Shown piece after piece: positions 37,039 through 63,611 of a stretch of 64,000 nt of DNA (positions within the stretch are counted from its first letter, which is position 1; every line of letters starts with the position of its first letter). The position numbers and the translations under genes were made by a program. The notes beneath the pieces are model-generated. The model searched no databases and had not been told where the DNA came from. It was given only the letters and a program-made list of their open reading frames with translations. This DNA comes from Trichoplax sp. H2 (taxonomy: Eukaryota), in contig NOWV01000158.1 in assembly GCA_003344405.1 (NCBI GenBank), positions 1-64,000 on the forward strand, written 5' to 3'.

Positions 37039-47228
<10,190 letters not shown>

Positions 47229-47229
47229 A

Positions 47230-48400
47230 CCGGTAGGCAACTGCAAAATCTCGGCTCCCAAGCTATGCCTTCCGCATGTAAAATGATATCCAACAATGTT
47301 GGTGTGGTAGTCCCTTTGGTGAGGAAGACGTTGTAGGCTGTAGCAACTTTTTCTTCTGTCTTTGTCCTTCTGAAATGGAGAGATACCGGACAACATTTCT
47401 GTTGATTTTAGTCATGCTCAGTTGGACTGTAGATTGTAAGCTACAAATAGACCTACACCAGTTGTGAACGGACCGGAACGGAACGGTGCTTCGGTTACTG
47501 GTACTCTGGTGCTCTTGTTGTACAGTACAGTATATACTGTACAGTACAATGTACTGTACTGTACAGTACGGCATTACTGTTGTGTACCGCAAAATACGGT
47601 ACAGTACCAGTACAGGACAGGACAGGATGGACTGGACACTTTCGTCTTGTTTGACACGGATACTGTAGATATCTCATTTTGGTTGCTGCAACCGCAGACT
47701 CACCTTGTAGAATAAAATGAAATATGAATTTTTCATCTATTCATTAATTAATGATCAATTGATTTCTCAGAAAAATGGATGTATCATAGTAAAAGATTAA
47801 GTTTGTCAATGGATATAAAATCAATTCAATCTAGGATGTGCTAAAAATCAAGCTTTGCTTGCAGCTGCTTTGCAGCCCGTGCTAAAGGTAATGCTTACAG
47901 TACTTTACTGCGTTACCGTAAGCCATTCTGAGTCTACTAGAGAAAATTCTTGTCAATTCCTTAGCATAACTTGCATAACTGTAAAATGGGAAGAAAAAAA
48001 AAATTGGACGCCAGTCACATGGCGACTCTGTACGAGGAAATGTCTGTCAGTACTGTCAGTCTGTCTCTGATCAGATTGCAGTACAGTACTGTACTATAAA
48101 TGTAATGATTGTCAGCTCGTACTGGACCATCGTTGGGGGGACCGGGACCAGTACGGTATGAGACTAAAAACCTTTCTGTTTTCTACAGTCTACAGTCTAC
48201 AGTCTACAGTACAGCGCTTCAACAGACCCAAGCACTGTACACACTGCAAAGATACGCACGCGTCTAGAGACCCCAAAGAAAACCGTATCACAAGTCCGGC
48301 CGGACTAGGAAAGCGTCGTAGTAAAAGACTTGACGATATAAACAGATCCACAGTTTCGACACTATTCGTGGCTAGCAGTGACCATCAGAGAGAAATCATC
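47230..48400. promoter_or_regulatory. Putative bidirectional promoter between Mi-2/CHD (-) and SSR3 (+)
   Basis: Divergent start codons ~1.17 kb apart. CAGTA palindrome clusters at ~47520-47615 and ~48080-48245, and TATAAA at 48095-48100. Confidence 0.55.
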
Positions 48401-50629
48401 ATGCCGGCTTCAAAGTCTCGTAAAAGTGAAGACGACTTGCTATTGCAAGATTTTAGCAAAAATGTTACCACTGCTTCTTCAGTCATTTTTTACATCAACG
48501 CCTTGTTGGTTTCTGTGGTGCCGATATGTAAGTTAATCAATGCTTTTCATTGAGTATACACCTGTTTGTTTGACAGTCGTAGAGGAAAGTATCTGAAAGC
48601 AACATTTTCTATCACGGATGCACGGTACACGTTGGGTGGATTGCTTCCCATTTTATGATGATATGTTCTGTCCTTATTGTCGTCATATTGGTCCGAGATC
48701 ATTTTACCGATGTCTAAATAATTGATATCACTCGCCATACATTTTCTCCTACCTAACTTACACTTCACTGTAGGCACTTGATTACTTGAAATTTAGTTAC
48801 GGTAGGCTTTGTTCCAACTCCCAACGACGTTACTCTACAGTACTGTAAATGGCGATTCTGCAATTGATGAAACCATCTCAATGTACGTGCTACTTATCCT
48901 TCATATAAAGCATCTAGAAATTTCGGGATCGGAGCCGAAAATGTTCTTTTGAAAGTTGATGGTAATGAAGTTGAAATTAATTTAGGAACCACTACTTTCA
49001 CATACCCTGTCAATGGCTGTCAGGACGGTACTCAATAGCGTGGGTTACAGCCGTGTTGCTGTCTTGTACAGTACAGTACAGTGAGCGCACAACAGCGCTT
49101 CTGTACAATACAGTACAGTAAAGTGGCTTGCTTTTCCTTGCTTAGTACGTGAGGCATTTTAGACTTGTTGGCGCAGGTTTCATTTAGCTTATTGTATGAT
49201 GGACTAGAATAATTCAATCTGTCCATATTCTTATCCTTTACTTCAAACATTATTGATTTGTATCTATTACTAGAAAAGGATGACAAAAAAGAGACTGGAG
49301 ATGAACATTTTCATTGTGTACTCAGTATAACATTATTGATCCTACGCCATTGCATGTAAAGTTAATAACATTGTCATCTTTACAGATCACTGTAGTGAGC
49401 TCTTGATAGGCGTAAATATACGCTCATACAAGTATATAAATTAAGAATAAACTTCACTTTTGGTATCCGTAAAGCTTGGCAAGTTGTTGCCATTCTTTAT
49501 GAGTCTACATTACAGTAGTAATACTTGGTTCCGCGATGTCGCCTGTATTTTTTGACCAGCTAGCTTTGAAGCATACTTGCATATGCACACACACATTGAT
49601 GATAGAGCTTACGTCGGCTACTCGATTACATTATGCATCTAGTCACTAAAAGTTTCTTAAAATTCTTCAACTATAGGGGTCTTTTGGAGAATCCATCAGT
49701 TAGATCCAAGATCTGCGGTGATTATCTATGTTCTAGGCGCAGCAGTCAGCACTTATATGGTGGCTTTTGCTTACAAGAACGTTAAATTCAATTTGAAACA
49801 CAAGTATGAATATTATTTCATCAAGTTTGCGTTTAAATCGTAAAATATGGTATCGACTGCAAGTTACTATCTATTTGGTTTTGAATTTCATAAGTTTATA
49901 GCTGCTATCTGCACTATACCATAGTCAATGTTTTTGAATACAAATCTATTTAATTTAATATAATGCTGTAGTAGGGGTTTCTAAGAGAAAAACTCCCAAA
50001 ATCCCTGGCTGTAGTAATTTAGACGACTTTATTTCTTGATAGAATCGCTGTTAGTCGCGACGAAGGTGTAACAAGAGAAGTAAGCAATCAACTCAACAAT
50101 TCTGCCAATGGGAAAAAGATCAATAAGAAGGAAAGAGATGAGAGGTTAGTTCTGCATTAGCGTTTCGCCTACCTTTCCTTAGTATAATTGTTTGGTGGCT
50201 TAAATATGAGATATCAGTGAATAATTTTCATATGAGCTTTTGCGTTACTGAAGAGTCGTTTCGGAATTTAGAAAGCATCATTAAATTTTTCAGAGTTTTA
50301 TGGAAGAAGAATCAAGTTGCCGATTATGAAGCCACGGCCTTTTCCATCTTTTACAACAATGTACTTTACATGCTACTTTTGATTGGAGCTTCCTTCTACA
50401 TTTTACGAAATTTCAGCCCTCAATCGTATCCTTTCATATAGTAATTTAATCAATTGTAAGGGTATGGGTTTGTTTATTACTCTATTCGATAGTAGTATAG
50501 AAATTTTATGTACAGCGTTTATATTTTCGATTAAGTACAATACTTATTCCTTAACGTTATTTTAGCAATTATATTTTATCCACTGCTGTTGCTGCTGGTC
50601 TTGTCGCTCTTTTCTCAACTGGCTCTTAA
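48401..50629 (+). CDS. SSR3: Translocon-associated protein subunit gamma (TRAP-gamma), 5 exons
   Basis: Exons 48401-48527, 49677-49803, 50043-50143, 50294-50425 and 50566-50629: [22 protein letters not shown]...[27 protein letters not shown]...[29 protein letters not shown]...[20 protein letters not shown]. Confidence 0.96.
50426..50565 (+). other. U12-type (minor spliceosome) GT-AG intron, SSR3 intron 4
   Basis: 5' splice site GTATCCTTT and perfect branch sequence TTCCTTAAC at 50547-50555, 10 nt before the 3' end. Frame-consistent. Confidence 0.93.
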
Positions 50630-51878
50630 ATTTTAAATTTAAATTTTCAATTTGCTTTATGCAATTGATAAATATGATTGTTCGAATTTATAAATGAGAC
50701 GATACCATTAAATCTTGGAATGTTGTTCTCATACATTATTGCTTCTCTTCACTGGTGTTGCTCTATTTATTTCACAGACTACAGCCGTTGTTTACTATTC
50801 ACGAAAGTTAAGGATGTTACTAACCACTGTAGCTGTTCCTAGAGTTAGGACTGTAATAATGACTGTTAACGGCTTGACATAGTGGTAAAGTATTCTTAGT
50901 TTATGACTGAGTTTTTACATTTAGTAAGATAGAACTAGTGCTCTATTAGGGTCCTAACTTGAGTTAAAAAATTCAGTTCGTGTAACCGGAGATTATTGTA
51001 CTATAGAACCGTAGTTTTTGGTACAGTAAAAATTGCTATAATTATATTATTTAGTCTAATAACACTGCTTAACTAGGTATAGGTTCCTGTGCATAACGAA
51101 AATTGAAAGTAGAAACAGACAGAAACGAAATGATTTCTATTAGATTTCCTTTAGGTGTACTGTATTAGGTTCGATCGACGATATACCGGCAGTTAGGAAA
51201 TAGGCGTACCGAAGAAAATATTTCATTTCCGTGTTGTGTTTAATTAAGTTGGTCAAGAACAACGAATGTCAGTGATTTCTTAACTTTCTATCATTGAGTT
51301 TATTTAGAGTAGTATTTATAATTTATGCATGATATCCTCCACTCATCGTATTACGCATATGTGCATAATTTTAAGGCTACACCATATGAATACATGAATG
51401 CCTTTGATTTCGGTTTATAAGAATTTATAAAGTTATCTTAGTTATGAGACGTAAAATCGTTTAATGCGTCATACCGAGTAGAAGAAATCGCAGAGAGTAA
51501 TAATGCAAAACTACTAACCAAGAACGCTGTTAAATCTCTCGCAAGAAGCGTGCGAAATAACTATTCTTAATACGTCATTAATAAACCACGGAAAGAATAA
51601 TTTTCAAGTGTTTGGCATCCATATACGTTTTCTACCATACACTGTCATTGTTCCATTTCTGTAGGCTTACTCTTAACGCCAGTCATACATACAGAAGGGT
51701 ATTACGCCTCTTATTTATTGTAAGGATTATGTTGCAGTCCTAAAGTGCACATAAATATAGCATACGAGTATATGATAATCACCATCGGTAGGAAGCGAAA
51801 ATTGTTTACACATTTCATATATCCAGAATATGTTGTTACCTCCAACGAATACATCAATGGCTTAGGGACAGTACTGAG

Positions 51879-54546
51879 CTAGTAAGAGCAGAAAGATCGC
51901 GAAGATCTATTTTCTAATTGTGCAGATAATTTATCCAGGATACTTGACGATAAGTCGTAAAGTTTGGGATTTAAACTAATAGCTGTCTTGAGTTCTTCAG
52001 TTGATAAGTAGTTACCACACACAGCATTTAATTTAGCAACAAGTGGCGAGGAAATTATGTCTTGATCAGATAATTTAAGCAGCTTTGAAAGGTCACGATT
52101 TTGTCTGAAGAGATATTTTTGATGGTAGCTAAAAATGATAATAATAAAGCGAAAACTGAGGATATAGCGTAATTTCTAATATTTGTGCTTAAGTGACATG
52201 CATAACTATAAATAGAATGTACAGACTCTATTACATAATTAATATGATTACAGCAAGTAAAGATACAGTACATGCCTACCAGTTACTTTTTTGTCACAGT
52301 ACTGTAGTCGTAATGAAATAAATTAATCTTCATTGATTCAAGCCATTCAAATGGGTGTTCAATTTTACTGTTTACTGCACTGATGAACTGTAATGTACTA
52401 CCTATTACTTATCCACCAGTAATCAAAATTATATTTACTACGAGTATTATCTTAATTGAAAGTTAATAAGCGTATAATAATTTTTAACTCGACGTACAAT
52501 ATACTCGCGATATATCGTATGTGAGGATTTCCAGCATCTCATAAATACTCACTAACATTACAGCAGACAGTACACGGTACGGTATAAAGTTACTGAACCT
52601 CTGTTAAATGAGCACATTATCGTAAACCGTCAGTAAAGCGACGGGAGCTTGCACTAAAATTATATATAAATATATATATTATACAGTATGAATGAGTGAG
52701 TAAGAGTGTTCCACATAGCTAAAAATGGAGAGTTACTGTAAGATTAGAGAAATGCGGTATGTATATCAGTATATGTCATACACTCTACTACTACACAGTA
52801 CACGGTATAAAGTTNNNNNNNNNNNNNNNNNNNNGTACTACCTATTACTTATCCACCAGTAATCAAAATTATATTTACTACGAGTATTATCTTAATTGAA
52901 AGTTAATAAGCGTATAATAATTTTTAACTCGACGTACAATATACTCGCGATATATCGTATGTGAGGATTTCCAGCATCTCATAAATACTCACTAACATTA
53001 GCAGTATGTCAGAATCCGACAGAAATACTGCACTATGATAACACTTATTACTTAACTACTCAAATGTTACTGAAATTCAATCTAACTATGATATTGACTA
53101 GCGATCGCCGATATTCAGTAGTGACGACTGATTCAGTGATAGCCGTAATCTTATTCACTTCAGATATGGAATTTCGGACTAATAGTTTAATGCTGCAGCT
53201 AAAACTCTCTAACATTTTTTGTTTCTTTTGCTGGTCAACTTATGACAAATGATTCATATTTGACAGACTGTAGAGAATACACACTTGCAGTAATACAGTA
53301 CATACTTCTCTGCAAGGAAAAATTTGCCAGCAGGTTGTATTACGGTGACAATTTTGCGGTAGACATGTTTTTGGCGGTCAGCCATTGATCGCTTTGCTGC
53401 TGCTTCTTGCTTAGCATCATGATAAAATATTGCGGACATATACTGATTGCTTCTCTTGCTGGTGGGATTGTGGGATGTCCAAAACTTTGTCAGTAATTCT
53501 TCGTATGAGATAACATTAGGATCATATTCAATTTGGATGGTCTCGGTATGATCGCCCCTAATCATGCAATATCAGCGTATACAAAATAGCTTCAGCATCA
53601 AGTTACAAGCGACAACAAGCCACATATAAGTATAGACAGAATATCATTCAATTATTGAAATTGTACATGTTACAAACTGCAACGGTTATCTTAAAATATA
53701 GGACTAAGGCCTACCCACAGAATACTCGTACATTATACCATAGACTACTTTTGTTATGCTGTACGTATATTCTCGTATATGTTATATCGATAACAATATA
53801 CAGTACACATAGCGAAAGCTAAAATATTCTCAGTTATGTCGTAGACTGAGTTCGATAAACCGATACGAAATCTAGTCTACTGTACGACTTGGTCTGATAT
53901 GATCTGAATCGATGGCTGACCTTATTTGTAAATAGCAGAGTCGAACTACTACTGTACGAAATAGAATACTCGGTCGATATGTACATGAAAAAGGAGAGGG
54001 TCATAACTATAATTAATTCACCGAAAACTCAGCACATTTCGTGCAACGCTTTACCAGTACAGTACTGTACAGTATAGCACTCGGACCCAAGGGCGTGTTG
54101 ATTAGAGCTGGAGATAAGTGTATAACGCACTTTCCATTACTATTCCCTTTACGAATGAATAATTTAAACGAAAAGTATCATAGGTAATGAAGAATGTTTC
54201 ATACAATTCTGCATTAAATGGCCGCTTCTTTTTAATCCTATGAAAATGGGTTTAAATCAAGTATGATTACTGTATGAATCATCACAATAACAGCAGCGAA
54301 TTTAATGTACGAGTATTTCGCCGGTAACTTTTCTTGATGCTATCATGATTCCAATAATATTGATTGTACAGTATTTAGTGTACTTTGCTGCAATTATCCT
54401 TACAAATTGTAATAAGTTGGATTTAAGGTCTTGCCCCCAGCAAATCCAACTTTAGTCCTGATGACGCCATTAAGAGCGGCGAACTGGGCTTCGGGAAACC
54501 AAAATCAGCTTAATGCGAGGGTTGCTTTAGCGTAAGTCGATGCCAT
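51879..54546 (-). CDS. MSRA: Peptide methionine sulfoxide reductase A, predicted selenoprotein (Sec at residue 14), 214 aa
   Basis: Exons 54546-54404, 53557-53306 and 52128-51879: MASTYAKATLALS(TGA)FWFPEAQFAALNGVIRTKVGFAGGKTLNPTYYNL|GDHTETIQIEYDP...QYMSAIFYH...FFLAEN|YHQKYL...FCSY*. The TGA (plus-strand tca, 54505-54507) aligns to the Cys of the GCFW active-site motif. Confidence 0.93.
52395..53000. other. Assembly gap (20 N, 52815-52834) with a ~166-bp exact direct duplication
   Basis: 52395-52560 is repeated at 52835-53000, immediately after the N run, inside MsrA intron 2. Confidence 0.9.
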
Positions 54547-56134
54547 TTTATTTATTTATTATTACGTTTTAGACGGTGTACTGGCCTATATGTAGTACTG
54601 TATAATGTGTGACATATTGTATACTGTATATGGCATATACATTATACAGTACTACTGTTGCTGAGCATGCGTAAGTCTGTTGCACTGTGTTGTGTGTACT
54701 GTACAGTACAGTATATTGTAGAATTGGAGCTTTTATACTGTAGGGTGTAGCGGATACGGCAGCCCCTTCATGTACATGTATTACTCGGTGTTACTGTACC
54801 CTACTGTACAGTATACAGTCTGTACTGTAGTAACTGTGCCATGACTGCTGATGGGTGCTCCGTGCCGTACACTGTTACAACGTCAATCTTCGGCCCGCCC
54901 CGGTCTGGCTCGGTCTGGCCCGAACTGGCCAGGACTGGCCTATAGTTAGTGCACAGCTTGACGCAGTAAAACTGCTTTCCTATACAACTACTGTACTGTA
55001 CAGTATTTTACAGTATTTGGAAAGAAGAATGGCACCGTGCCAGGTACAATAGCACCGCGCCAGGTAGGTTGGTTGTTGTCGGTCTGTTTATGATGAGTCA
55101 CACCTTACAGTACTGTACAGTATCATAAAGATCAGAGTGTACAGTCCACTGTCAATAGCCAGCAATGCATGGCTGGTGTAGTAAAATAAAACTGCAAATT
55201 AATTAATTTTTGCATGTAGCAGATTGATCTACACTACAGTACACAGTCTACAGTACTAGTGATTGATTAATTCACTTCGCGACATTGGCTCCATTCAAAT
55301 TCGTTGCTGTCGCTGTGGCGTCGTGCCAACCAGTGCAACAGGAAGTCAGTACTGTAGAGCACTAACGTACTGTAATCATGCCAACGGGAGAGAGATTTAC
55401 ATGAAGTGAACTCAATTGTTCATTATTAAATAAATAAACTGAAATTAAATTTAAATTAGGGGGGATATCTCTGATATATTATTATTCGGTCCAATAGTCC
55501 TTCAGACAGGACTAACAAGACTCCTCCCGTTTTTACTCCGTCATTGTGACATAGTCATATCGTGAGATCTTGGCTATTGTCAAACAGACAGGTAGAAAAA
55601 CCTCTGGTAGATACTGTTCAAACTCCCTCTTTTATTAGGGTCCGGGGCAAAGTGGGCCAGTTTTACTTGTCATGTACTGTACACTGTACAGTACAGTAAG
55701 CTACCCCGCGCAGTACTGTATATGTAGTACCAAACTGCACAATGTACAGTACTAGCAGTAACGTACAGTACTGTACTGTACTGTACAATGTCTGGAATTT
55801 CAAAATTGTTTAGTTACCCTGCTAGTGCAGTCGAACGATACTGCGCTGCGCACGAGCACTACATGACGTCACTTTCAGCTTTCTACAAGGGTTGTAAGAT
55901 TCTGCGTTTCTCTCATCCTTTACATTGGGACTCGCAAGGTTAGCCATATTGAACATCACTATGTTATCCGCGTAGAATCATATGTGATCGATCATCTAAT
56001 TCACTAAAAGTTCAATTCTTTCAGTTCCAAGACATCTAAATTATGTATTTTTAAGATATATTGGTTCTCATTGCTAATAGGGTCCGAGGATTAATCGATA
56101 GTATTTTAATCTTGGATTGCCTTTCAAGTCAGTA
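54547..56134. promoter_or_regulatory. Putative bidirectional promoter / 5'UTR region between MsrA (-) and eIF4G (+)
   Basis: Divergent genes. CAGTA palindrome clusters at ~54590-54830, ~54985-55260 and ~55670-55790. GC-rich patch with a GC box at ~54891-54940, ETS-like CAGGAAGT at ~55339, and a perfect CRE TGACGTCA at 55864-55871. Confidence 0.55.
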
Positions 56135-59100
56135 ATGACTACTCCGAGTTTCAGCCAATATAGTCAGAAAAATAAACCAGCCCGAGGAAGTCAATCGTAT
56201 CTTTTTTTTTACAATAGTACTGTGTAATATTAATTTAGGATCTGCTTATTCGTAGTATTTCTGTAACATTATGCTATATCATTTGGTCATGTACTAATTA
56301 TACCTTAAAGCCATTTCACAGACATGTCCTATAGTAGCATGTCGTGCACTCAATATAGAATCTGCCTTCAACTATGGGTGTAATTTAATAACTAGAATAT
56401 TGGTACTGATTTCTTTTTACGCCTTCACAGCGGACTGTACTTAGCTATACAGTCTTATTGATCATCTCTATCTAGTTAAAATATTTATAGATTGATACTA
56501 CAGTGAAGTTTTCAATAGCTCTATGCTACGACGTAGATTTTAGGCCGCATAAGCTTACCTATGAAAATACAATGCACCGGTGTAGTTTCACGACAAGTTA
56601 CTTCGTTTAGTATGGCGTAGGATATTCATTGAATTAACCGGCCATTGTCATGAAATGTGCTTTAATTGATTCGAAATTTAAGATCGTTGTCGTCTACCTT
56701 GTTTTATTAAAATAGTTTCGTTATTCTGCCTTAACTAAAATTTTATTCGACATTGTCAAAGTGGGGCTCCACACTATCCAAGTAAGTTCAACTTGAAAAC
56801 TTTTTTTACTTGAAATCGGTAGAAAAAAGCTTTTTTCCTCGGATCGATTCTTGTTTGTTAAATAATTACAGTGGAATACAATTGATGATGACTTCTTTCT
56901 ATACGTATCGTAGTAAAATTTATGTTAGGAACGATATCTGTTAATAGACATCCATAGTTAATACTAGTAGTAAAATTGCTTCCTTTACCTCATAGTTATA
57001 AGCCATTAACGTCTTATTTATCAATCTTCTTACTATCAAGTCGTAATCAAAAGTTTAAAGTCTACTATAACATTGATTATAATTGTTGTCGTTGATTTCT
57101 TTCACGATGTACAAGTACTGTACATCGTGGTTGATAAATATCCGCCATAACAGTTTTCGTGCAGTAGTCATGCATTTCAAGGGGTACATATGCACCTGGG
57201 CATGTTTTATGAATTTGTTCTTATACTTTTTTTCACCTGACTACTCTAGAAACACAATTTACACAATTTTTAATTGATCCGTTTCTACTATTCTAGGACG
57301 TGATGACCACAGTAATTCACATAGAAGACCATATGACCAGCAACGTGTAAGTTTGATTGGTTTTATCTGCATGCCTGATCACCAATCAGCAGGATGATAA
57401 AGTTACAGCATGTACTACATTATCTAGACGGATTAATTAATCATCCGCTTTGCATTTTTTTTCTATATTTGAAAAATTGCATCAGTAACTTGATCAGCTA
57501 TTATTTGCTAAGCTGTATAATTTGATGTCGGTTATCAAAATTGTCGAATATTTCATGTAATAACTTCACAATTCTTTGCTGATATATTCAGATGTCCCAG
57601 CAGCCCTATATGCCTACCGGTAATACTCAGCATGGCTCTGGTGCTTATAAACTACAAAATCGCGGGCAATTAATGACAACTAGTCGATCCGCTGAAATGC
57701 CTCGCTATCCGCCTGCTGGGGTTTTGTATTCATTTCCACAGCAGTCTGTTCAGTCACCTTACCCAGCGTATGACAACAACAACATGGTACGTTATAGACG
57801 TGTGCTTTAGTAACAGTTTTTTTAAGTGAATGTTACATGTAGTCAGTAAAAATGTATCAAACTTCATCAATGCAATAGCGGAAATATTACAATCGATCAA
57901 TACTTTAATATTGTAGGGAAAAATACCGTATAGAGGAAGTATGTTTTATATTTCTTTGAATTTTGTCAGTTATTAAGTGTGCTTGATGACTAAATGATCT
58001 TACTTAAGTTTACGGAGCTATATTGTAAACTTTAGCACAGAATTACGAACAAAAAATGCATTAATGAACCACCTTAAGTATGGCTGTACAAAATTAGGCT
58101 ATAAACTATATTCTTACTTTTTTAATGATATATTAGGTAATGCAAAATAGGCCGGCCTATGGACATCAAAATTTTAACCTTATGAACACTTATGTTGGTA
58201 ATCAAGGTATGAGCAACCCTGGGTACAACACGCAAATGAACGTCGCTATGTCGCAGCCTGCAAATATGGCCTTCGCGACGATGCATGATCGCTCTAGTAT
58301 ACAAAATAGAACCACACCAGTTCAAACTATGCCTCATCAAGCGGAATCACAAAATATGAATAATCCAATGAAGGCACCACCAAAGAAAAAGAAAAGCCAT
58401 GCCTTAACTATTGTCGATCCTAACACTAAGGAAGCTGTGAATGTAAATGATACTACTCAATCGAACAATTTCGATAGTAACATCGAACGTTCTATTATGC
58501 ATACGAAGCAAGCCGATAATAATGATCGCCGAAGCTATCAATCAAAAGCAAAAGGCTCGATAAATGATAGTCATGATGTTATTTCTAATAGTACCACAGC
58601 TTCCAACAAAGAAGTGTCCAAAACAGAACAAGACAAAGAAATACAACCTCAGAAGTCAATTAAAAGTAGTGACGACAGTAGTGCAAATGCTGATGAACTA
58701 CCAACGACGTCAGAAAGTGGCAAAGTGCCTGTGCCTAAAACTGAAATAGAGGATGACGCTACAAAAGTTGAACCTAACGATAGTTCCAATTTAGATAATA
58801 TAATTGATCAACCAAATATGGCATCAGATAATTACGAAAATGAAGTAGTGAAAGTTGATCTGAAAGATGTAACTGACGGGATTAGCGAGATGCAGGTAGA
58901 CAATACTGATGATAAGAAAGCTGAGTTGATTGAAGAAGTTGTTGTAAGCAACGATTCATCAGGTGAGATTGTACTTATTACGAAGAAGGGTAAATGAATG
59001 GCATATATTAATAAATCAAATGTTACGTAGCACCTGCAGAAGACGGAAGTAAGAACGCTCAAGCGGTTGTAGAGGAAGAGCAAAAACCGAAGCCCTCTAA

Positions 59101-62100
59101 AGAGAGTTTACATAAACCGGAAGCTGATTCAGAAAATATTAAAAAGGACGAGGTAGTTAAGAATCTAGCACTGCCTATTAATATGCGAACGCGGCATTGA
59201 AAATTGAAATTGTTTTAAAATTTTTAGCCAGTATTAACAGAAGAGAAGGGAACTGAATCGTTTATTGAAATTAAGAATCAGGAGCCAACTATGGAAGATG
59301 AACAAAAGTCAGACACTAATGATGATCAAAGTCAGTCTGATGACGATAGCTTAGAACAGAATGAAGAAAGCGATGAAGGTAATTAATTAAGGTTGCTTTA
59401 CCAGTAAAACTTACTTTTTTATCCACTGAAAGGAAAGGGTTCTAGTACCTTTGCTTGTGAAACTGTGGAGAATTTTATGTTCAATCATAATTACTGATAA
59501 ACAATTTCCATAGGTAATCGTCACTATGATCGTGAATTCCTACTAAAGTTTCGAGCTATGGGACCGGCCCAAGCTCGACCTGACTTACCGAACGTCGAAT
59601 GTGTGCTAAAAGAGGTAATTTTGTTAATGACGTTAACCTAATTTACAGTAGAAATATGTTATAGCATTTATAACCACTTTTTTGCTAATAATTACTATTT
59701 ACTATTATTTGTAGGGAAGCAATATTGGCGATGTGTTAAGGTTAAAAATGATTGTTTTATCTTGTAATTCTAACATTAAAAATAACATGCTTCATTTTCT
59801 ATTTAGTAAAGCTATTTATCAATTTGTTTACAGGCATCCCGCCGATTTCGTCCTTCCGCCATACAGCCGTCAAAAATCAAGTGTAAGTTTCATTCCATAT
59901 AGACCTACATCTTAAAGCAATTTTGCTTATTTATCACATGATTGTCACATCAGGGCTCTGGTAAAGGAAGGAGTCAACGAGGATCCAAAAAAATAATTGA
60001 TCATAGTATCTCTACTAATATTACGCTCAAGAAAGCAGACAATAAATGGCAGAGACCTAGCGAAGAACGTGATGAAGATAAAGTAAACAGACTGTTTTTC
60101 TCTAGCAGTATTTTCTGTCTCAGAAAGCTTATGTATGCCGTTTTTAAATTTTTATAGATTATTCTAAATAAGGTTAAAGCTATTTTAAATAAATTAACGC
60201 CTCAAAAGTTCGATGTCTTGGTTGGGAATTTTAAAGAATTGACGATTGATAATGAAGCAAGATTAATGGGTGCCATAGACCTAATCTTTGAAAAGGTGCT
60301 AATATTCTGCTGATGTTTTAGATGATATTACGTAGCATTTAATCGTTGTGAATTTCCACACTTTTAGGCAATTGCTGAACCAAGCTTTAATCGCTGCTAT
60401 GCTCAACTCTGCCTGCTATTACAGGATGTATGACAAATCAAACGTTTTTGATAGAGGTATAATTTGTAGGTCATTTGCTCATTGTAGAAGCTTCTATTCT
60501 GTTTTACAGACCTCAATACAAAAAGGAGCGGATGGATTATCCGGCAAATCTAAAAATGTAACATTAAGACGATTGATCTTGAATAAGTGTCAAGCAGAAT
60601 TTAGCAAAACTAAAAGTTTCGATAGCAATAAAGCGGAGCGAAAAGAAAAAAGACTAGCCGAATGCAACACGGTATGTCTTTACGATCACATTATACAGCA
60701 CATATTATCAAATATTATAGTAATTGGAGCTACTATTTTAAAATCATAGAATGAAGAGAAGCGTCGGGTACAGGAAGAATTGGACATAGAAGAAATTAAA
60801 GCAAGAAAGCGATCACTTGGAAATGTTAAATTTATTGGAGAGCTATTTAAATTAGGGGTAAATTTACGTATAAATTGCGTATCGGTATTCTATCCTTTCG
60901 GTCAATAGATTATTATATTAAAGTGCTTATAATATAATCTTCATCATTGTAGATGCTTAAGGAGAATATTATACATCAAGATTGCCTTGTACAATTATTT
61001 CATAACAGTGATGAAGATTCTTTGGAAAGCTTATGTGGCTTTATGACAAGCGTTGGAAAACTTCTCGATAGGCCTGATATAGCAGATAGGATGGATCAAT
61101 ATTTTGACCGATTGAAAAAATTAACGCAGAAGAAAGATAGGATTTGTGCTCGCATGCGATTCATGATTCAAGATGTAATTGACTTAAGACAGGTATACTC
61201 TATTCGTAGATTACGACCTCAAATATTGCCTAGTTATAAAAAGAACCTTGCTTTATTTCTAGAATAATTGGGTGCCTAGAAGGGCAGATAACAATCCTAA
61301 GAAAATTGATGAAATTCATCGTGAAGTTGAAAAAGAAGCTGCAATGCAAGAAGAACAACTGCGTGCGCACCAGCCTAGAGAGAAAAACATGCCTAGAAAT
61401 AGAGGTTAGCTCAATGGTTTTTCTTGTATTTGTCATCGTGTATGATGGAAATTGTACGATACAGAACTCTTTTATTACAATAAATCAGGTCGAGGGAATG
61501 ACATGGACGATAGAAGACAAAATTATGGTGCAAGCCGACAGCGAATGGATAGATCTGAAATAAATGTTTCTAAGTTTATGGAAGCTGCAAACAAAAAAGA
61601 TGAAGCTATAACGTTAGGACCCCCAAGCTGGATCAAAAAGACTGCTAACAATTCCGGAGGTTCGCCACGTACGAAGTTAGTATCCTAAATCGAAATAGAT
61701 AATCAAAATAAATTTATCTGTTGATGGATCGAAGTATCTAAATCAGTAAAAAATCTCTTACAGTCAATCGAAAGATCTTCATTCCAAACACTATAAAGCC
61801 CAAGGGTCGACTAGGTATATCTATGATTATTTATATTATTGTGTATTTAAATCATTTAACATTTCGGTGATGTACTTTCTGTAGTGGTATTATGAAAGAA
61901 CGCAGCGCGATTTTCCATGACAGAAAACGTGATAATGCGAATATTAAAGAGAACAATAAGTTAACTGAAGTATCATCAGATAGATTATTGTCTATTGTAG
62001 AAGAAGTTTTTGAAGAATACCGTAATAATGGTGATTTTAAGGTATTGGCTCAAAATTCCAGCAATTGTTTCCTTCTCAGAAATTTTTAGGAATCTAATGC

Positions 62101-63611
62101 AAGTATTACTTTTAATTGTAGGGTCCTGTTCAAGAATTGAGCGATAAATCGAATTTTGTAGATAAACTTGTTAACTACGTTCTGGATAAGAAGGATGAGG
62201 ATCAGAAGGCTGCTTCTTTGTTGCTGCAGGTCTTATTCGAAGATTCAATTATACCGTCTGATGACTATTCAAAGGCGTAAGTTAATTTCTTTGCCTCTTA
62301 CCGATTCTTATAGAGTATGGTGTTTCTCATCAGTTATTTAATTATTTATTGTTATCTTGCATCATAGATTTGTGAGTATCCTAGATGTTGCTACGGATGT
62401 GGCAATTGATGTTCCACTGATTTATAGGTATTTAGCGAAGTTGTTTTCGCCGTTAATACCAAGTTGTGTTTCATTACAACAATTAATTAAAATTGCAAAG
62501 AACAATGTAATTGCAAGTTGTAATGGCCATAAATTGATTTGTGAAATCTTAGTCAACATCAAGGATATTAAGGTACATTATTCTCATTTGAAGTGAAATG
62601 GTATGGTAGGCAATACAAAGTTACTGAATTCAGAACGATTGCATACAAATATATAGGGCGTAGATTTTGTTAGCAAGGTATGGGCAGATAGTGGTGTTTC
62701 TGTTTCTGATTTCACAAGCCTGGATAGCGCGAAAGTATTGCGTGAAAACGTATGTTTAGATGTAATAAAAATTAACTTTACGAAATATGTGGAGATTAAT
62801 TTGTATTTTATTATCATGAATGCGTAGGGTCTTGAATTTCTGATCAAACCTAAAATCAGTTCTGAAGAGATAGAAGATGAAATTCTACGTATGCTTGAGA
62901 ATAGAAATGATACCGCAGTCCAGCAAATGGATCAATTATTGAACACGGTATTGATGAACAATATTTTCGTATTGTATTTACACGTGCATTAGCATAACGC
63001 ATTAGAAAGTAATTATCTAATTAATTATCTTGATCAATTAGTACGCAATTACTCATCAATTGGAAGATTTATTGCATAAAGCCACGATTGCAATTTGCCG
63101 CAGTTGTGTTAAAGGTTGGTTGTCTTTACCGATTTAATTTATTTTGGATTCATTTGTGTAATAAATTGTTTCTGCTGTTTTAATTATTGATGTCACATTA
63201 TTGTCGCTGCAATTGGCAGGAAATAATTGCGATGAAGGAAAATTAAAGAAGAATATTGTTGTGCTCGACTCTGTATTAAAGAAATTTTACGATACTAACA
63301 AAGGTGGACTTGCTTGTTTGAGTCGTATAGAAGAATTTGTGTCCGGTTTAGGCCACCCGCCAGGTAACGTTATGTTTATGTTGCCTTGAAGTATCAAAAT
63401 TGGTTGTTATAAAAATTGCTAATGGTAATTTCATACTATCAATGCAGATCTTCTAGCAAAAATTTTTAACAGTTTATACGATTTTGAAAGTATTAATGAA
63501 GCTACCTTCAAGGAATGGCTTGATGATAAAAAGTCGAGATCACCTGAAGTTGCACGTTCTCTTAGCCATTTTATTGATAGAATTGAGAAGGGCGATGTGG
63601 AATCAGAATAA
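56135..63611 (+). CDS. EIF4G: Eukaryotic translation initiation factor 4 gamma (eIF4G1/3-type)
   Basis: PABP-binding-like KKKSHALTIVDPNT, eIF4E-binding YDREFLL at 59525-59545, MIF4G domain (ILNKLTPQKF...AIAEPSF...RSLGNVKFIGELFKL...RMRFMIQDVIDLR|NNWVPRR), MA3 domain (DVAIDVPLIYRYLA) and W2 domain ending in TAA at 63609-63611. The 5' exons 56135-56196, 56762-56781 and 57297-57346 are inferred from frame and splice consistency and are less certain. Confidence 0.93.

Follow-up and report, generated by a model that had tools for sequence, protein, structure and literature searches.

An expressed gene for a predicted helical-domain selenocysteine MsrA in Trichoplax

Selenocysteine (Sec)-containing MsrA is an established enzyme of invertebrates. 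Jiang et al. 2012 (PMC3473315) reported Sec-MsrA in five of six invertebrates and list one in T. adhaerens in their Table 1; centipede, Daphnia, tick and amphioxus were described in PMC4244043, and the hosts named in these two sources also include sponge, sea anemone and annelid (PMC3473315, PMC4244043), while algae and a fungus are covered by PMC7539508 and 10.1101/2021.02.26.433065. As presented in the first two of these sources, vertebrate MsrA arose by Sec-to-Cys conversion of the invertebrate selenoenzyme (PMC3473315, PMC4244043). The closest solved relative of the protein described here is the selenoprotein MsrA of Clostridium (Alkaliphilus) oremlandii (CoMsrA; E 2e-39, where mammalian MsrA reaches about 1e-22), which, as far as its published accounts describe it, lacks Cys entirely, depends on glutaredoxin for recycling, has an active site that needs the helical domain, and is 20-fold more active in its Sec form than in its Cys form (PMC4333827, PMC4479559).

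Sec-MsrA in Trichoplax is thus already known (PMC3473315), and the T. adhaerens protein of that report is most likely the product of the gene described here, since of the two MsrA matches in the genome the second carries Cys. The new details are a 100-nt intron in the 3′ untranslated region (3′UTR) and a second, Cys-type MsrA paralogue; relative to PMC3473315, the present analysis contributes that intron, evidence from RNA and placement in the helical-domain type. It also locates a SECIS-like element and mends the truncation of two public models of this selenoprotein gene, which belongs to an animal lineage that branched off very early.

The window, by which we mean the whole stretch of DNA analysed, comprises 64,000 nucleotides of Trichoplax sp. 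H2 (contig NOWV01000158.1). The features of the gene within it are as follows.

54404..54546, minus strand: coding exon 1, residues 1–47 plus 2 nt
54505..54507, minus strand: in-frame TGA, codon 14, at the catalytic position (S-U-F-W), unchanged in 4/4 runs and TGA in 69/80 homologous loci (best 80 of 530)
53558..54403, minus strand: intron 1, 846 nt, GT-AG, spliced in 3/4 runs
53306..53557, minus strand: coding exon 2, containing GDHTE and QYMSAIF
52129..53305, minus strand: intron 2, 1,177 nt as assembled, GT-AG, spliced in 3/4 runs
51840..52128, minus strand: exon 3, with YHQKY, the helical domain and TAG at 51881–51879, then 39 nt of 3′UTR
51888..51890, minus strand: codon of Cys212, a candidate resolving cysteine
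51740..51839, minus strand: 3′UTR intron, 100 nt, GT-AG, joint found in X13, X14 and X9 (3/4 runs)
51714..51719, minus strand: AATAAA between the 3′UTR intron and the SECIS-like element
51593..51656, minus strand: SECIS-like element (pattern scan, fold and RNA contig cover)
51299..51304, minus strand: AATAAA downstream of the SECIS-like element, a candidate poly(A) signal

The original prediction placed a TGA at the catalytic position of an MsrA encoded by three frame-consistent exons with intact downstream motifs, and this arrangement was recovered throughout. Exon 1 (54546–54404, minus strand) translates as MASTYAKATLALS*FWFPEAQF...GFAGG...NPTYYN, with the TGA of codon 14 at 54507–54505, and GDHTE, QYMSAIF, AENYHQKY and the terminal FCSY* are all found. 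The three coding exons join into 645 nt, encoding 214 residues and ending in TAG, and codon 14 is the sole internal stop of this frame. Numbered along the protein, the motifs U14-FW, NPTY42, GDHTE49, QYMSAIF86 and YHQKY133 occupy columns that are nearly invariant in the alignment. The Pfam family PF01625 (PMSR; curated cut-off 23.7 bits) matches exon 2 with E 2.3e-21 (77.1 bits) and, over its positions 1–40 and with the TGA read through, exon 1 with E 4.7e-11 (43.6 bits); the exon 2 product is 100% identical to two named proteins, one from Trichoplax sp. H2 and one from T. adhaerens. In-frame stops immediately 5′ of the ATG exclude a longer N-terminus within exon 1.

Gene predictors had been expected to truncate such a gene, and both public Trichoplax models do indeed avoid the TGA. 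The T. adhaerens model (TRIADDRAFT_6339, XP_002113880.1) is a partial protein of 152 residues that starts at the FW following the TGA and is identical to residues 15–166 of the Sec-MsrA, while the other (P0001) has 169 residues and starts at a Met in intron 1.

Intron 2 contains a 166-nt duplication, the copies of which, at 52395 and 52835, flank a high-copy repeat and a 20-N gap (window 52395–53000). Run X4 skips 440 nt of this region and an X14 contig continues into the repeat; probably the repeat insertion is polymorphic and its flank was duplicated in the assembly. Elsewhere in the window, a multi-exon gene divergent from MsrA lies on the plus strand at 57583–63611, which we take to be eIF4G-like from its MIF4G-, MA3- and W2-like exons, and minus-strand exons at 43834–47411, presumably CHD/Mi-2-like, carry PHD-finger-like sequence (44354–44593).

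The 3′ part of the gene was present in 20 of 24 listed runs, and four runs from three studies were compared in detail: X13 and X14, which are RNA from one study; X9, from another study and RNA by our guess; and X4, which behaves as DNA, since its introns are evenly covered and splice joints are absent. Contigs of X13, X14 and X9 skip exactly introns 1 and 2 and cover exon 1 with no differing letter, spanning 54403–54589 and thereby extending the 5′UTR to at least 54589, so that exon 1 is part of the transcripts rather than omitted from them. The TGA, which the original prediction had asked to see in reads and cDNA, is kept in contigs from the three spliced RNA runs as well as from the DNA-like run, and both coding variants seen among the runs are synonymous. 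These run data are contigs that report presence rather than level or transcript ends, the window's DNA may itself derive from one of the samples, and the TGA and the SECIS-like element are linked through splice joints, never lying within one single contig record.

A scan of metagenome contigs for homologous loci yielded 530 relatives, and the best 80 were used for reading the codon at the catalytic column. Among these best 80 of 530, it is TGA in 69, TGC in 6 and TGT in 5, and all 14 loci of the eukaryote-type S/Q-x-FW(F/H)PE form carry TGA; the Sec/Cys pairing anticipated for orthologues thus holds in 80 of 80 loci. In a set of 120 protein matches, by comparison, the residue before FW is W in 42 and C in 4, three entries begin at FW, and 71 fall outside the search motif, most of them through truncation or mis-splicing at that point. 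The 42 W entries most likely represent TGA translated with a TGA=Trp table. Public models from Amphimedon, Nematostella, Lytechinus and Patiria also begin at the FW after this position, and among public models from mites, crustaceans, bivalves, echinoderms, sponge and sea anemone nearly all are truncated or mis-spliced at the Sec position.

Downstream of the coding region, the 3′UTR intron begins 39 nt after the stop and gives the transcript a fourth, non-coding exon; a form retaining this intron also exists, as unspliced contigs covering 51712–51868 in X14 and X9. In the spliced mRNA, the SECIS-like element lies 130 nt after the stop, with AUGA at 51648, a 10-pair helix II, an AAAA loop and a closing GA ending at 51603. 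RNA contigs cover this hairpin, and the UTR splice joint ties them to exon 3. Scanned for the SECIS pattern on both strands, the 64-kb window returned four matches, the MsrA hairpin being the best of them (10 pairs, −9.4 kcal/mol), and of 1,000 dinucleotide shuffles of the 599-nt region 14 contained any match and none an equally good one, a figure that is somewhat favourable because the scan was written after the hairpin had been seen. The fold of the 101-nt hairpin segment has a z score of −2.59, and the same strict pattern scan found matches in the 3′ regions of 7 of 14 eukaryote-type homologues compared with 1 of 66 others (best 80 of 530). The SECIS sought in the true 3′UTR is accordingly represented by a SECIS-like hairpin in a transcribed 3′UTR. 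Two AATAAA motifs flank it. The upstream AATAAA, if used, would produce an mRNA without the SECIS; an X14 contig ends at 51293, just past the downstream candidate signal, but contigs of X13 and X9 continue beyond 51000.

The genome also holds two parts of the Sec-decoding machinery, a tRNA-Sec (78.1 bits, anticodon TCA) and a multi-exon SepSecS gene, and in addition a thioredoxin-reductase-like gene that ends GC-TGA-G-TAA with a SECIS behind it. The last served as a positive control.

L006, G000:C463:1119669-1119734, minus strand: SECIS_1 match 289 nt behind the thioredoxin-reductase-like gene, 32.5 bits, below the cut-off of 35

Covariance models rate the MsrA hairpin low. Rfam SECIS_1 aligns to it over its full length with 15.6 bits (E 1.8; cut-off 35), the 14 weak matches returned by Rfam over 49000–56000 include no SECIS and none near cut-off, and a genome-wide search with RF00031 returned one site, which is not the MsrA hairpin. 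A covariance model built from nine other SECIS candidates gave 19 matches in the window, the MsrA hairpin absent among them; this home-made model derives from a poor alignment with six pairs and no consensus fold, which realignment changed little. Rfam appears weak on such elements, given that it recovered 2 of 14 homologue SECIS candidate regions and scored the thioredoxin-reductase SECIS below its cut-off. Separately, palindromic TACAGTACTGTA-rich repeats with very high read depth occur at 54050–54080, 54590–54720 and 55660–55800, and account for weak Rfam microRNA matches.

Among the alternatives to Sec decoding, the one that survives best, itself very unlikely, takes the TGA as a true stop, leaving a pseudogene that is still transcribed, or a shortened protein that begins further downstream, while the Cys paralogue does the work. 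The genome does contain a second, Cys-type MsrA, the public model P0001 does begin at a later Met, and the low covariance scores of the hairpin would fit this explanation. However, the Met of P0001 sits in an intron that splicing removes, a protein without exon 1 would have no catalytic residue, and a decayed stop would not share one column across 69 loci (best 80 of 530). The original prediction had argued against a pseudogene, and the intact 214-codon frame and the synonymous nature of the two coding variants are both on its side.

Still less probable is that UGA14 is read as Cys or Trp through a changed code or leaky readthrough. The W found at this position in 42 of 120 database homologues could be cited in its favour, but those entries are gene-caller products, whereas readable DNA gives TGA or Cys and in no case TGG (0/80, best 80 of 530); moreover, the genome carries a TCA-anticodon tRNA of the Sec type, and Trp would be unable to serve as nucleophile. 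The chance that sequencing or assembly turned TGC or TGT of an ordinary Cys MsrA into this TGA is practically negligible for, although intron 2 holds an assembly gap and a duplication, four of four runs from three studies show no difference at 54505–54507, the T. adhaerens public model also begins directly after codon 14, and TGA occupies the column in most of the homologous loci (69 of the best 80 of 530).

We therefore hold, with high confidence, that the gene at this locus is intact and expressed and that its product is a cytosolic selenoprotein of 214 residues, a methionine-S-sulfoxide reductase A of the helical-domain, CoMsrA-like type. Residue 14 is almost certainly Sec, judging from the sequence, the UGA in RNA, the hairpin and the genes for tRNA-Sec and SepSecS. 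By analogy with eukaryotic Sec decoding, the SECIS would recruit SBP2 and eEFSec with Sec-tRNA, and UGA14 would be read as Sec. Where insertion failed, the mRNA would be expected to enter nonsense-mediated decay, since 101 nt separate UGA14 from an exon junction downstream and the usual limit is 50–55 nt; the 3′UTR intron, 39 nt after the stop, falls below that limit.

Assignment to the helical-domain type draws on profile and structural comparisons. A profile made from 94 homologue C-termini, none of them from Trichoplax, gives the C-terminal 77 residues 33.3 bits and 500 shuffles at most 8.6, while Pfam PF20939 has no match in exon 3, in the Trichoplax C-terminus or in P0001. A predicted model of residues ~46–214 has a mean pLDDT of 83.7, with about 90 in the C-terminal helices, and finds its best structural match in CoMsrA, where 155 residues align (Z 10.7, rmsd 4.1), through CoMsrA residue 210, compared with ~80 residues for all other MsrAs. 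The GCFWG motif, long active-site loops and absence of a helical domain are not features of this protein.

If CoMsrA biochemistry applies, Sec14 would attack the sulfoxide, methionine would be released, and the C-terminal helical domain would hold the active site together. Recycling could then proceed via Cys212, carried by a mobile tail, or follow the CoMsrA route, in which glutaredoxin acts directly. We lean slightly towards a resolving role for Cys212. Its column is Cys in 37 of 95 homologues, and in the 120 protein matches, the rows of which are related to one another, a Cys within the last eight residues occurs in 4 of 4 catalytic-Cys forms compared with 19 of 42 presumed Sec forms; among the best 80 of 530 loci, bacterial-type Cys loci mostly have no C-terminal Cys. 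The C-terminal tail is of low confidence in predicted models of both the Trichoplax protein (~46–214) and a full-length homologue (L007), with block pLDDT of 52 and 54, so that neither model bears on the role of Cys212. A 2019 study reportedly found a disulfide between the active site and a C-terminal Cys of Drosophila MsrA. Cys169, by comparison, stands in a column that is mostly V, L or I and is probably structural.

The second Trichoplax MsrA, found by genome search, differs from the Sec-MsrA in domain content as well as in its catalytic residue.

G000:C204:37008-37265; L002:1459-1914 (minus strand); L087:6964-7533: second MsrA, Cys type

It has the GCFWG motif, long active-site loops and a catalytic domain in one unbroken exon, and lacks both a helical domain and a C-terminal Cys. 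Among solved structures the bovine and mouse-type enzymes match it best (163 bits, versus 106 for CoMsrA). Its database matches, besides itself and one 84% match, are 59–67% identical, all the named ones being bacterial, and orthology with vertebrate MsrA does not follow from them. It lies among intron-containing host genes and adjoins one that we take, from its motifs, to be decarboxylase-like. A possible origin is horizontal acquisition in placozoans. The upstream exon of its public model occurs twice around a 20-N gap (L087 8714–8893 and 9625–9804).

In a quick tree of 48 hand-chosen MsrA rows, none of them from vertebrates, 37 helical-domain rows of bacterial and animal type separate as a group from a short Cys group with support of 100 (starred), and the Cys homologue of the insect Lycorma sits within the Sec clade. 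With a profile drawn mostly from animal-type homologues, the catalytic domain of CoMsrA reaches 200 bits, mammalian MsrA 133–137 and E. coli MsrA 132. Because this profile places vertebrate MsrA level with the E. coli enzyme, these comparisons suggest, as a lead, paralogue loss in vertebrates rather than the published Sec-to-Cys conversion. On balance we favour a picture in which animals would have two deep MsrA types, vertebrates would have lost the helical-domain Sec gene, only insects would have converted it and Trichoplax would keep both, its Sec enzyme being recycled by way of a Sec14–Cys212 bond, in contrast to CoMsrA with its lack of Cys. The literature searched, mostly outside subscription journals, held no statement of the paralogue-loss reading, which may nonetheless be published. 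Should vertebrate MsrA be of the other type, one line of selenoproteome history would change, and insect and mammalian MsrA would not be direct orthologues.

Set against the known systems, the Trichoplax Sec-MsrA resembles CoMsrA (PDB 4LWJ–4LWM, 4U66, 4W8C) in its catalytic Sec, its short NPTYYNLGDH loop and its C-terminal helical domain, and differs from it in its two cysteines, Cys169 and Cys212, in its S-U-F-W-F motif, and in a gene with introns and a SECIS-like element of eukaryotic kind in the 3′UTR. It is thus of the CoMsrA structural type, yet not of the 1-Cys type, under which we do not file it because both cysteines are present. With the Cys MsrAs of vertebrates and E. coli (PDB 1FVG, 2L90, 6AGV, 1FF3) it has the catalytic fold and PF01625 in common, whereas those enzymes have a Cys nucleophile, longer active-site loops and no helical domain. 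Finally, it clusters with named animal homologues among the invertebrate Sec-MsrAs (SH-aLRT 89, unstarred), while its helical domain is divergent and the remaining 24 eukaryote-type rows group without it (93, unstarred).
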